Both the position numbers and the translations under genes were made by a program. Positions 45,318 through 63,735 of a stretch of 64,000 nucleotides of DNA are shown here, piece after piece. Each line of letters starts with the position of its first letter. The stretch's first letter is position 1. The notes beneath the pieces were generated by a model. The model saw only the letters and a program-made list of their open reading frames with translations, did not search any database and had not been told where the DNA came from. Origin of the DNA: Malacoraja senta (lineage: Eukaryota); NCBI GenBank assembly GCA_038087875.1, contig CM075994.1:4590001-4654000 (forward strand), given 5' to 3'.

Positions 45318-45344
45318 TTGTAGAAGAACGTAATTCTTGAATTT
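45318..45344 (-). CDS. 27-nt microexon (E)IQELRSST
   Basis: attttattttctgcag|AAATTCAAGAATTACGTTCTTCTACAA|gtaagc. Confidence 0.8.
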
Positions 45345-48300
45345 CTGCAGAAAATAAAATGATTTATTTAGTTTTATCACCTGGTAGGAAAGCAATTTGT
45401 TCGAATTTTTTTAATTAACATTCTTACCTTTATTGAGGTCCTCTATTATCTGATCTAAAATAGTAATACAATTCATGATATAAAATGGCCATTGTTCAAA
45501 TCCAAAATGTTGTAAATGTTGTTCTCCGCTGATAAATGAAATGGAATGGACGGCGACGATTATTCCTTGGAAAAAATGGAAGATAATTTTGAAGGTAGTG
45601 TTGCATGGAAATTTGAGAAATATTTTTTTGTAATATTATATACAAATGATCGCACATATACATGAAAACAAGGTTAATTGAACGCAATAAATTTCATAAT
45701 GGCAGTGTAGGATTAAGTGCAGCAAAGCCGAATCAAGACGTCTTCATGTTTAAACAGTTATGCATATATCAATACAGATTATATTGGCTAATATTGTTTG
45801 CGATGCATGTGGAAATTAATCGAGACTTAGTATATACTAGACCAAGTGCAGACCCGTTGGGTCTGTTCCCCCAAGGCGCGGTTAAGAGGGGAGGGGGCGG
45901 CCTGAGGCGTCCACACACACACACCAACCTCTCTCTCACACACACACACACACACTAACCACCCCCCACACACACACACTAACCACCCTCATTGATATTA
46001 TATTAATATTATTAATTCACTCCTTTTACCCCATGCCCTGCCCTATCCACTCACACATAGCCCCCAATTCGCATGCACGGAGGGGGAGACGGAGGCACAG
46101 AGAGGAAGACAGAGGCACAGAGAGGGAGCCACGGAGGTACAGAGAGGGAGACACGGACTCACAGAGAGAGACACGGAGGCACCGAGAGATACACGGAGGC
46201 ACAGAGAGGGACACGGAGGCACATAGGGACACCGAGGCACAGAGAGGGACACGGAGGCACAGAGAGGGCCCCGGGTCACAGAGAAGGACACGGAGGCACA
46301 GAGAGGGACACGGAGACACACAGAGAGGGCACGGAGGCACACAGAGTTAGAAACGGAGGCACAGAGAGGGACACGGAGGCACGGAGAGGGACACAGAGGC
46401 ACAGAGAGGGGCACGGAGTGGGACACGGAGGCACACAGAGAGGGACACGGAGGCACACAGAGAGGGACACGGAGCCACACAGAGAGGGACACGGAGCCAC
46501 ACAGAGAGGGACACGGAGCCACACAGAGAGGGACACGGAGGCACAGAGAGGCGCACAGAGAAGGACACGGAGGCACACAGAGAGAGACACGGAGCCACAC
46601 AGAGAGGGACACGGAGGCACAGAGAGGCGCACAGAGAAGGACACGGAGGCACACAGAGAGAGACACGGAGGCATACAGAGAGGGACACGGAGGCACACAG
46701 AGAGAGACACGGAGGCATACAGAGAGGGACGCGGTGGCACACACAGAGGGAAACGGAGGCACACAGAGAGGGACACGGAGCCACACAGAGAGAGACACGG
46801 AGCCACACAGAGAGGGACACGGAGGCAAACAGAGAGGAACGCGGAGGCACAGAGAGGGACACGGAGGCACACAGAGAGGGACACGGAGGCACACAGGGAG
46901 GGACACGGAGGCACACAGAGAGGGACATGGAGGCACACACACACGGTGATTCACGGAGGCACACAGAGAGGGACACACAGAGAGGGACACAGAGGCACAC
47001 AGAGAGAGGCACATAGAGAGGGACACACTGAGAGGGACACCCAGTGAGGGACACGCAGAGCGGGACACACAGAGAGGGGCACAGAAAGGGACACAGAGGC
47101 AGGGGAGCTTCTTGCCTTTTGGAGCTGGGGTTTCCGATTTGCGACGTCTTTTGAGCGAGCGACCCTGCAGGTGCGAGCGGTGCGGACGATCAAAAGCAGC
47201 AGAGTGCCGGCCGATCGAGAGGGGGGGGGAGAGAGAGAGGGGGAAGAGAGTGTAAGGGAAAAAAGGGGAGGGGAGAGAGGGGAGGGGGGAGGGGGAGAGA
47301 GGGGGAGGTGAGAGACGGGAGGGGGAACGGGGAGAAGGGGGGAAAGGAGTGGGCGGGCGGGCGAGATCCCGAGGGTACCTGCGGGCCGTCAGCGAGGACG
47401 GCGAAAAGCAGCGTGGGAACAGCCGATCTGTGGCTTCCGCCAGCGTGACAGAGCCGGACCGGGTGGGGAGAGGAAGTGGAGGAGAGCCGGGCGGCAGCTG
47501 AGCTCGTGGGCGGATCTGAGCGGGCGGGGAGTGGAGCGGGCGGGCGGGCGGGCTTAGTAGACCAGATGCGGGTGGCGTGGCGCGAGCGTACTTGGAGCGG
47601 GGGGGTGTGGTGGAGAGCCGGGCTACCAAATGAAGAGAGAGACAGAAGCGGCTTGGATTGGTCGGCTCGTGGGCATTGTGAAGTCAGCAGCTGGTAAGAG
47701 ACGTTTGGATTTTAAAAATTAAGATTTGTTTGAGTTCTGTGAGAAATTTTACTCGAAATCTGGGGAAATAATTGACCAAGGAGTGGATGTGCGAATGTAA
47801 AAGTAAAATCTCTAGCGAAATGGTAAAAATCTCGACGTGAGGGGGGGGGGTGAGGGTGGGGGGGGGGGGGGAGAGGGGAGGGGTGTTACCGAACTGAACT
47901 CATTGTGGAATGAATCCAGTAACGGAGCCACTCTGCTGCTGCTTTCTTAGTTGTCCCTCTGGAATCCTCCTCGTCCCCATCAGATGCCGATTTCCCAGAG
48001 CCCTGGTTAAAAGCGGGAGCCGCTCACGGTTAAATCTGTGAAAGCGGCCACATCAGAGACTGTGAGCAGCAGCAGGGTTCACTATAGGAAGGACCATTGC
48101 GCCTATTGTAGCGGGTGGCTGCTCGTTCCTTCACTCCCCGGCCTTTACCCCGTCCGCTCGTCACCTTATCTCTTCACCCCTGAAGCAGGTCGTTCTGGCA
48201 CAGTTGCCAGACGCTGAAAACTAAATATTGTTGCGGGAAGTGCGGCTGCGGTTCTGACTACAGCCGGCGTTCTACTCTGTCTGGGGGGAGAGGGCGAGTG

Positions 48301-63300: not shown

Positions 63301-63735
63301 CGCTCACAATACTTTTCAGCGAGGAAATCTAAATGTTTTACCCCGTCAGGACTAAGGCGTCTCCAGAGCCACTAATGTTGTTGACTATTGACCACCTCGT
63401 CAGACACTGGGAAACTAGGGGTAGAAAATATGTGCGATTGTTGGCAACAAAATTAATATTCCTTGATCTCGTAAAATAAAGGTGTCAGTTTCAAAAATAA
63501 GGAATAAAATGGAATGAATACCACAAAGAATAAAACGGAACGAATTCCGTCATGGCAATATTGATTTATTCTCGTTTCTACTATGTTCAAATCAATAATC
63601 TAATTGCAAATGAATGCTGCACCTTTCTAACAGAATTTCCAACTATTTTGCCTCACATGCAACGCGTAATTCTCAAGGTAATAATTGCATGAAAAATACG
63701 TCCCATACCTAGATCTTCAACCCTGGTCTGTAATG
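45318..63735 (-). CDS. Putative multi-microexon gene segment encoding a coiled-coil-like tail (butyrophilin/BG/TSBP1-like architecture); both ends lie outside what can be resolved
   Basis: Nine 27-nt exons plus 30, 21, 24 and 36-nt exons, all on the minus strand, AG/GT-flanked and open in phase 1-1. Spliced: LQTRVEDL-DFLAEKYCER-EKQLSEKER-DISVKAR-EMNITRGT-ETLLEQNQR-RLQNSLQDA-AADLEAKGN-EIKTLTSILTQT-ETTLAARER-EKNDKCKSD-NQIIEDLNK-EIQELRSST. Confidence 0.7.
45428..45454 (-). CDS. 27-nt microexon (D/N)QIIEDLNK
   Basis: tactattttag|ATCAGATAATAGAGGACCTCAATAAAG|gtaaga; 83-nt intron to the next exon. Confidence 0.8.
45837..48776 (-). mobile_element. Non-autonomous Helitron, copy 2 (composite)
   Basis: Same CTAG plus CAGACCC/GGGTCTG hairpin terminus (45837-45865) as copy 1. 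Similar aaaaatctcg(a/g)cgttt...aatcaaaggc...(CA)n...tagat 5' module ending in TC at 48776. Confidence 0.8.
46075..47100. repeat. 20-22 bp minisatellite (gagggacacggaggcacacaga) inside Helitron copy 2
   Basis: About 1 kb of tandem degenerate units. Confidence 0.96.
48806..49010 (-). repeat. 3' LTR of the Gypsy element (205 bp)
   Basis: TGTA...TACA termini; polypurine tract AGAAGGAAAGA immediately upstream (49011-49021 on the minus strand); AATAAA near 48850. Confidence 0.8.
51987..54250 (+). mobile_element. Degenerate CR1 LINE inserted in the Gypsy protease region
   Basis: KSPGSDGLHSRVL, FADDTKLGG, RPHLEYCVQF and a CR1 3' UTR; collinear with 3539-5545 but with many stops. Confidence 0.95.
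55818..55844 (-). CDS. 27-nt microexon (E)KNDKCKSD
   Basis: gaatttcag|AGAAAAACGACAAGTGTAAATCTGATA|gtaagt. Confidence 0.7.
56486..56512 (-). CDS. 27-nt microexon (E)TTLAARER
   Basis: ttctcttttttctcttag|AAACAACATTGGCTGCAAGGGAAAGGG|gtaagt. Confidence 0.8.
57060..57095 (-). CDS. 36-nt microexon (E)IKTLTSILTQT
   Basis: ttccttctttttcag|AAATAAAG...CAAACGG|gtaatt, phase 1-1. Confidence 0.6.
57671..57697 (-). CDS. 27-nt microexon (A)ADLEAKGN
   Basis: tttccgtttcag|CCGCTGATCTGGAAGCAAAGGGAAATG|gtatgg. Confidence 0.72.
58386..58412 (-). CDS. 27-nt microexon (G/R)LQNSLQDA
   Basis: tattttaatcag|GACTACAAAACTCCCTTCAAGATGCAG|gtatgt. Confidence 0.75.
58707..58733 (-). CDS. 27-nt microexon (E)TLLEQNQR
   Basis: ctcttgttacag|AAACCCTTCTGGAACAAAACCAGAGAA|gtatga. 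Confidence 0.72.
60141..60164 (-). CDS. 24-nt microexon candidate (E)MNITRGT
   Basis: gtgtttacag|AGATGAACATTACTCGTGGAACTG|gtaaaa. Confidence 0.5.
60574..60594 (-). CDS. 21-nt microexon candidate (D)ISVKAR
   Basis: gcagagcag|ATATTTCAGTAAAAGCTCGAG|gtgaaa; acceptor ambiguous because an upstream AG gives 26 nt with a stop. Confidence 0.35.
60711..60737 (-). CDS. 27-nt microexon (E)KQLSEKER
   Basis: ttttcttgttgttcttgcag|AAAAGCAATTAAGCGAAAAAGAGCGAG|gtaaat. Confidence 0.78.
61350..62130 (+). mobile_element. Very degenerate Penelope 3' fragment containing a (CA)n expansion
   Basis: 61350-61395 resembles the reverse complement of 6190-6245 (endonuclease end); cagtcgtaagaatgttctgacgtgaaac...atgccgcctga resembles the pseudo-LTR at 8706-8760. 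Confidence 0.55.
61445..61730. repeat. (CA)n microsatellite, about 285 bp
   Basis: Direct observation. Confidence 0.99.
62376..63185 (-). mobile_element. 5'-truncated Rex1/Babar LINE with (TTGA)n tail
   Basis: ORF 62675-63178 AHQRLHFLRKLKQ...FYRGTVESVLTYCINTWY...LLPSGKRYRSIKARTTRLLNS; AATAAA then (TTGA)n at 62376-62395. Confidence 0.93.
63299..63328 (-). CDS. 30-nt microexon candidate (D)FLAEKYCER
   Basis: catttag|ATTTCCTCGCTGAAAAGTATTGTGAGCGAG|gtaaat; shares the 3' end GAGCGAG|gtaaat with the 60711 exon; weak pyrimidine tract. Confidence 0.5.
63709..63735 (-). CDS. 27-nt microexon xLQTRVEDL
   Basis: ctctatttttttag|CATTACAGACCAGGGTTGAAGATCTAG|gtatgg. Confidence 0.75.
   Translation of the reverse strand, partial: HYRPGLKI

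Follow-up and report, generated by a model that had tools for sequence, protein, structure and literature searches.

The window analysed here is a 64,000-nt stretch of the genome of the skate Malacoraja senta (contig CM075994.1, here C18, positions 4590001-4654000 of a 1.94-Gb assembly). It contains ten very short exons, all on the minus strand, at the downstream end of a much longer array of such microexons that we designate copy A; positions above 64000 are window coordinates extended along C18. Nine of the ten had been listed in a first-pass annotation of the window as parts of a hidden gene, and this observation is confirmed. All nine (9/9) are 27 nt long, lie on the minus strand, are preceded by AG and followed by GTA, and are open in phase 1-1. 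An exon score model trained on the exons of a paralogous array (paralog B, see below) gives these nine scores of 7.2-22.9, with a cut-off of 6, and adds a tenth exon of 36 nt. From upstream to downstream, and with this score, the exons are as follows, head and tail being exon classes described below.

63709..63735, minus strand: 27-nt microexon, phase 1-1, the most upstream within the window; score 14.8
60711..60737, minus strand: 27-nt microexon, phase 1-1, tail class with Lys at codon 6; score 22.9, also matched by the genome-wide pattern
58707..58733, minus strand: 27-nt microexon, phase 1-1; score 9.0, below the threshold of the generic splice score
58386..58412, minus strand: 27-nt microexon, phase 1-1; score 13.4
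57671..57697, minus strand: 27-nt microexon, phase 1-1; score 7.2, the lowest among the ten
57060..57095, minus strand: 36-nt microexon, phase 1-1, head class with hydrophobic codons 1, 4 and 8; score 13.6, its partner being the paralog exon at C18:4035937
56486..56512, minus strand: 27-nt microexon, phase 1-1; score 17.1
55818..55844, minus strand: 27-nt microexon, phase 1-1, with one Cys; score 8.8, the paralog exon at C18:4036917 having Cys at the matching codon
45428..45454, minus strand: 27-nt microexon, phase 1-1; score 16.6
45318..45344, minus strand: 27-nt microexon, phase 1-1, the final one detected, with a donor that has no downstream partner in the assembly; score 18.2

Interspersed candidates of 21, 24, 30 and 36 nt had also been proposed. 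The 36-nt exon at 57060-57095 (score 13.6) is consistent with this, but no candidate of 21, 24 or 30 nt reaches a score of 6 and the sole 21-nt candidate listed scores 2.2. When a generic splice score is applied to 45.1-64 kb, a comparison with the + strand and with shuffled sequence that the first-pass annotation had suggested, six of the nine listed exons pass, whereas the + strand has 0 passing candidates of 27 nt; in 200 local Markov resamples of the same region, passing 27-nt candidates average 0.085 and number at most 2, versus the 6 observed. Contigs from sequencing run X1 cover all bins of 55-64 kb with no splice joints, and as the depth is flat (~21) through the introns, this run is DNA. 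DNA searches with the window regions 55.7-58.9 kb and 45.15-45.85 kb returned no paralog, only short repeats.

Extent and coding character of the array

The array extends ~670 kb upstream of the window exons, up to 718 kb, with 125 catalogued exons past the right edge of the window (C18:4654001-5308342); the first-pass annotation, borne out as to its exons, covered less than one tenth of it. Within 45-746 kb there are 48 sense versus 1 antisense candidates of 27 nt and 24 versus 3 of 36 nt, and the flanks outside the array have 0 and 0 candidates of these classes. In phase 1, 46 of the 48 27-nt and 23 of the 24 36-nt candidates, selected on splice signals alone, are open; in the other phases, the 27-nt candidates are open in 32/48 (phase 0) and 18/48 (phase 2) cases.

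The paralog-trained catalogue of copy A contains 135 exons (versus 7 antisense), of which 73 are 27 nt, 38 are 36 nt, 12 are 18 nt, 8 are 24 nt and 4 have other lengths. Exons of 21 nt are rare, 1/135 in copy A and 1/83 in paralog B. Concatenated, the copy A catalogue gives 1,287 codons with no stop; as candidates had to be open to enter the catalogue, this is not independent evidence, and the independent openness figures are those for the splice-selected candidates. The predicted product is 15% Glu, 15% Lys and 13% Leu, with 8 Pro, and the residue at the junction is Glu at 82 of the 134 exon junctions. More than 130 microexons in the same orientation and phase read as one open, nearly proline-free helical chain. 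As a family, these arrays are almost certainly real coding sequence.

Paralogs, distribution and coiled-coil register

A pattern search located a sister exon at C18:3.90 Mb on the + strand, in paralog B, which is inverted relative to copy A and has 83 exons versus 2 antisense in 160 kb. The alignment of A and B by exon order scores 456 versus 102 or less in 30 shuffles. In 42 A/B pairs of the same length, identities at codon positions 1, 2 and 3 are 65, 71 and 50%, and the ratio of nonsynonymous to synonymous substitution (dN/dS) is 0.33; for 23 core pairs it is 0.31 (bootstrap 0.19-0.45). Four pairs anchored by intron DNA have synonymous and nonsynonymous differences (pS and pN) of 0.37 versus 0.14, and random pairs of the same length have pS 0.73 and pN 0.63. 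Mean A/B identity is 0.62 in exons, 0.50 in deep introns and 0.495 in random introns, most introns being no longer alignable. Exon order and substitution pattern show, by these measures, that paralogs arose by copying of the exons together and that purifying selection has acted on them. Paralog B continues beyond the counterpart of exon 45318 by at least 12 catalogued exons, to at least 4.15 Mb.

Genome-wide, a pattern for the 27-nt class has 46 matches versus 11 for its control, 27 of them on C18 (3.03-5.60 Mb) and 5 on C5 (15.4-18.4 Mb). A pattern for the 36-nt class has 30 matches versus 1, with 16 on C18, 9 on C5, 3 on C4876 and one each on C4996 and C13; read by eye, the C13 match has stops and the remaining 29 are open. 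A mis-sized pattern, serving only as a negative control, has 3 matches versus 6 in its own control, with 0 on C18 or C5, and one additional pattern search gave no match. Most pattern matches fall in two multi-megabase fields, on C18 and C5. Together the two patterns detect 10 of the 218 catalogued exons, and at this catch rate the 43 matches on C18 and 14 on C5 correspond to roughly 900 and 300 exons, an estimate accurate to a factor of two at best. Two exons are identical between C18:5595386-5596227 and C4996:21850-22691, a probable haplotig, and the 36-nt exon of this pair is nearly identical to the copy A exon at 399.3 kb, a recent partial duplication.

Head exons encode 12 residues with the motif E-I/L-x-x-L-K-x-x-L, and in 36-nt exons codons 1, 4 and 8 are hydrophobic in 74, 77 and 70% of cases. 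Tail exons encode 9 residues and often terminate in K-D/E-x, and most 27-nt exons have a hydrophobic codon 3 and frequently Lys at codon 6. The commonest transitions between classes are head-to-tail and tail-to-head. The 12- and 9-residue exons alternate, 21 residues being three heptads, and the register continues across the exon junctions. Hydrophobic periodicity peaks at 3.5-3.6. The first-pass annotation had proposed a 9-residue rather than a heptad module; in the window's ten exons, the power is 1.15 at period 3.5 versus 0.05 at period 9, and as 12+9 and 9+9 or 12+6 exon pairs preserve the register, a 9-residue module is not supported. Its more general proposal, that hidden symmetric phase-1 microexons encode an E/K/L/Q/R-rich coiled coil, is supported.

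Periodicity in the real exon order is 0.588 in copy A versus 0.361±0.041 when shuffled, and 0.594 versus 0.315 in paralog B; in both, 0/300 shuffles match the real order. That periodicity depends on exon order is in itself evidence for their splicing in this order. Dropping one 27- or 36-nt exon reduces local periodicity from 0.60 to 0.44 or 0.42, and dropping a 45-nt pair gives 0.28, whereas it stays at 0.55-0.56 when a 63- or 54-nt pair is dropped. The coding unit is therefore 21 or 18 residues contributed by two exons, not 9. Since single-exon skipping would break the register that the real order maintains, the free tuning of length by skipping that had been suggested for these symmetric exons is not supported, and the register model predicts instead isoforms that skip exons in register-keeping pairs. 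If expressed, the product is very likely a long coiled-coil rod that keeps this register.

Gene ends and interpretation

Immediately downstream of the last exon the sequence changes to the following elements.

14031..45124, no strand: (GATA)n satellite, noncoding, 31 kb and unusually long, 7793 copies with 90% matches, beginning ~190 nt past the last exon
13831..14030, no strand: assembly gap of 200 N that borders the satellite on the side away from the array and may conceal the remainder of the gene

The array halts mid-module at exon 45318. There is no terminal-exon acceptor or polyA signal in 45130-45317 and no exon-like island inside the satellite. Three stretches in which B exons are absent from A are 200-N gaps, at 168.8, 140.1 and 93.4 kb, and so the missing 3′-end can be accounted for by the gap past the satellite; other A losses relative to B, for example at 81-77 kb, are not at such gaps. 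The missing end may be an assembly loss or a true truncation. A tail-class exon on an unplaced contig (C4444:28849) resembles the one expected after 45318, and this contig might hold the continuation of copy A. At ~194-210 kb, where A also lacks B exons, there is a CpG-poor minisatellite of ~16 kb with long open frames in all phases.

At the other end, the first exons (707-710 kb) and a unique block (728-745 kb) have colinear copies both on the + strand of C18, at 5.735-5.767 Mb, and on C4876. An ATG with a phase-1 donor at ~737.5 kb, present in copy A and in a further paralog (C) and replaced by ATA in C4876, is a candidate start only. An additional array exon lies upstream at 787306, and as its homologs, at C18:5.703 and 3.722 Mb, are upstream of two paralogs, the 5′-end may lie further away. 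The 728-745 kb block may be a gene start between tandem genes, or the interior of one longer gene. Segments of 46 nt (745.4 kb) and 48 nt (743.05 kb) were rejected as 5′ coding exons, with splice site(s) or frame lost in paralogs. The first non-coil exons (718-708 kb) have a possible resemblance to a death domain.

With a probability of about 0.72, the window contains the 3′-most assembled exons of a giant gene, copy A, that belongs to a multi-copy skate family predicted to encode long coiled-coil rods. The exons would be spliced mostly constitutively into a rod at least ~190 nm long, at 0.1485 nm per residue, that may function as a stalk or spacer. Paralogs, and perhaps isoforms, would differ in rod length through exon blocks gained or lost without disturbing the register. 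Copy A itself is probably still expressed in full. The least certain step in this proposal is that the rod would bear a C-terminal B30.2 recognition domain, as in teleost long coiled-coil proteins; this analogy makes such an end conceivable but falls short of making it probable, and in copy A it would either lie lost within the GATA satellite and gap or have been severed there.

The teleost proteins that suggest this end combine a very long E/K/L/Q-rich coiled coil with PRY-SPRY (B30.2). They are 1,200-2,900 aa long, widespread, annotated with many isoforms (P0156-P0217, P0238-P0356) and carry automatic names such as 'DDB_G0290503-like', 'golgin A4', 'myosin', 'TPR-like' and CENP-E. They are a plausible analogue for the missing end of the array; several start with what appears by eye to be a hydrophobic, signal-peptide-like leader, and none was found in the sequence read upstream of the array. 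No cartilaginous-fish member was recognised among the named matches, the named long ones being all teleost. With a profile of the 21-residue module, the teleost proteins have at most 0.77 modules per 100 aa versus 1.9 in copy A, which is in the training set, and comparisons of their isoforms revealed no clean 9-, 12- or 21-residue skips. The next same-strand B30.2 downstream of the array (window -6987) belongs to a TRIM gene and is split over two frames, and the end of paralog B lies past the 4.057 Mb read.

Several observations weigh against a giant rod-encoding gene. Exon joining is predicted from the DNA sequence; false entries are expected to make up ~5% of the catalogue, which also lacks exons at gaps. 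The score does yield false positives, as shown by a 24-nt candidate on the + strand (57690) that reaches 13.4. The A/B pairs were picked by peptide similarity, which biases their dN/dS downward, and their dS, 1.38, is close to saturation. Pairing with B is weak for the window exons themselves, which have nucleotide identities of 0.39-0.56 and are matched mainly on motif and order of lengths, so that selection is shown mainly for the upstream exons. The parts of the array that were read include no B30.2 exon, and neither end of the gene was located. In local comparisons of the rod with 361 proteins, the best composition-adjusted E was 0.002 versus 0.001 in the reversed control, and the teleost coiled-coil and B30.2 proteins resemble A and B by composition only.

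Alternatively, the family may be real and copy A a decayed or 3′-truncated paralog that ends at the GATA satellite and is no longer expressed as a full protein. The array stops mid-module where the paralog continues and where an earlier internal module predicts another 27-nt exon, a terminal exon was not found, rearranged partial duplicates abound in the region, and the adjoining TRIM gene is broken. We nevertheless consider decay unlikely, as almost all splice-picked candidates are still open (46/48 and 23/24), the window splice sites are intact, and three other A losses coincide with 200-N gaps, so that the one past the satellite can likewise account for the end that is missing.

The symmetric exons might instead generate diversity, with free exon skipping producing many variant proteins as in schistosome micro-exon genes (MEGs). 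All exons are phase 1-1, so that any skip keeps the frame, and the teleost coiled-coil and B30.2 genes are annotated with many isoforms. MEGs have 10-20 exons, mostly 15 nt, encode a signal peptide and vary by alternative splicing; like the array, their coding sequence is almost wholly tiny, frame-keeping exons between long introns, which are hard for gene finders (10.1101/2023.06.21.545858). The coding region of the array likewise consists mostly of symmetric exons shorter than ~80 nt. Unlike MEGs, however, the array has more than 100 exons, in an order fixed by coiled-coil register (0/300 shuffles), single skips lower the periodicity when 63- and 54-nt pair skips barely do so, and dN/dS is ~0.3, not >1, consistent with purifying selection. 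Diversity generation is therefore improbable.

The first-pass annotation assigned the array to a type that includes butyrophilins, chicken BG and TSBP1. As a butyrophilin- or BG-like cytoplasmic tail, it would follow exons for signal, Ig and transmembrane parts situated further upstream than the 794 kb read. BG tails are encoded by small phase-1 exons with a split first codon and heptads that span exon junctions (PMC5938342), and BG genes have 13-36 exons each (PMC4046983). The array shares with them the logic of symmetric phase-1 small exons that encode a long coiled coil, and the organization as a multigene cluster with variable exon number; the array exon at 787306 leaves room for a more distant 5′-end, and skates possess Ig+B30.2 genes (P0124). 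The chicken exons each encode one heptad in 21 nt, or sometimes 18 or 24 nt, and follow exons for the signal, Ig-V and transmembrane segments (PMC5938342, PMC4046983), whereas those of the array are 27 and 36 nt, paired to give 21 or 18 residues, and a copy has 135 or more of them spread across no less than 670 kb. One-heptad exons of 21 nt are not a feature of the array. Motif and hydropathy scans of 45-794 kb identified no Ig, transmembrane, lectin or B30.2 exon, and no convincing transmembrane exon directly before the short-exon tail. Pfam searches with 121 of 214 open reading frames (ORFs) from 700-794 kb and 150 of 271 from 45-700 kb found transposon families and one sub-threshold match only. 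The one strong hydrophobic ORF, at 742.8 kb, was rejected as a transmembrane exon, being frameshifted in paralog C. With no such exons found in 45-794 kb, membership in the butyrophilin/BG family is unsupported and we regard it as very unlikely, although the 5′-end may lie further upstream. TSBP1 (C6orf10) has many short exons near the MHC; a literature search gave no description of its exon structure.

That the exons are chance AG...GT segments in AT-rich intron DNA is refuted, for although short stretches with splice-like ends are common and 7 antisense candidates pass the same rule, the strand excess of 48 to 1, the resample maximum of 2 versus 6 observed, the colinear paralog and the genome-wide clustering are all contrary to it.

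The microexon-built coiled coil is a known design, described for the tails of chicken BG, where 21-nt exons number about three dozen at most; the module and scale of the array are new. Read as a giant rod-encoding gene, the array follows the BG-type principle on a scale several times larger per gene; its code differs, with residue pairs of 12+9 and 9+9 that keep the register, and such arrays occupy megabases on two contigs. Large coding genes can hide in skate genomes in this way, every exon being too short on its own to be picked up by homology search or ab initio prediction. A literature search, beyond whose reach most subscription journals lay, found no description of such arrays in cartilaginous fishes; automatic gene models may exist.

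It is possible, although doubtful, that the tandem arrays, rather than being separate genes, form single transcription units, each at least 1 Mb long and containing several hundred microexons of 27/36 nt; putative examples are the C18 + strand at 3.03-4.35 Mb and the minus strand from 5.6 to 4.63 Mb, through the window. Such units would rival or exceed in exon number titin, with its 363 exons, and encode rods of several thousand residues, whose length would be determined by skips of 63 or 54 nt that keep the register. Gene finders would then have overlooked, in a cartilaginous fish, a hidden family with about a thousand exons.

Neighbouring TRIM genes and other elements

The array lies beside a TRIM locus, as the first-pass annotation had stated. 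A RING/B-box exon at 8179-7712 shares up to 89% identity with TRIM proteins from the skates Rhinoraja and Leucoraja. It is the only same-strand RING/B-box found, lies downstream of the array and has its own ATG, whereas in a TRIM gene the RING and B-box would precede the coiled coil. The minus-strand gene, zinc-binding protein A33/TRIM39-like (window 8190-815 plus L026:2684-3288), has a TAA at codon 4 after the ATG, and its B30.2 exon is divided between two frames; it is probably a pseudogene, or these are read errors. A second TRIM gene, in the opposite orientation (plus strand, window -49466 to -30763, L030-L029), has middle exons tandemly repeated ~2.3 kb apart. Two NCBI skate models, 'golgin B1-like' (P0008) and 'trichohyalin-like' (P0044), were considered as models of the array and rejected; both are multi-TRIM models with no match to it. 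Within the array, the 10-kb intron between exons 55818 and 45428 contains, at 49100-52000 on the minus strand, a decayed LTR-retrotransposon pol remnant with an integrase zinc-binding match.

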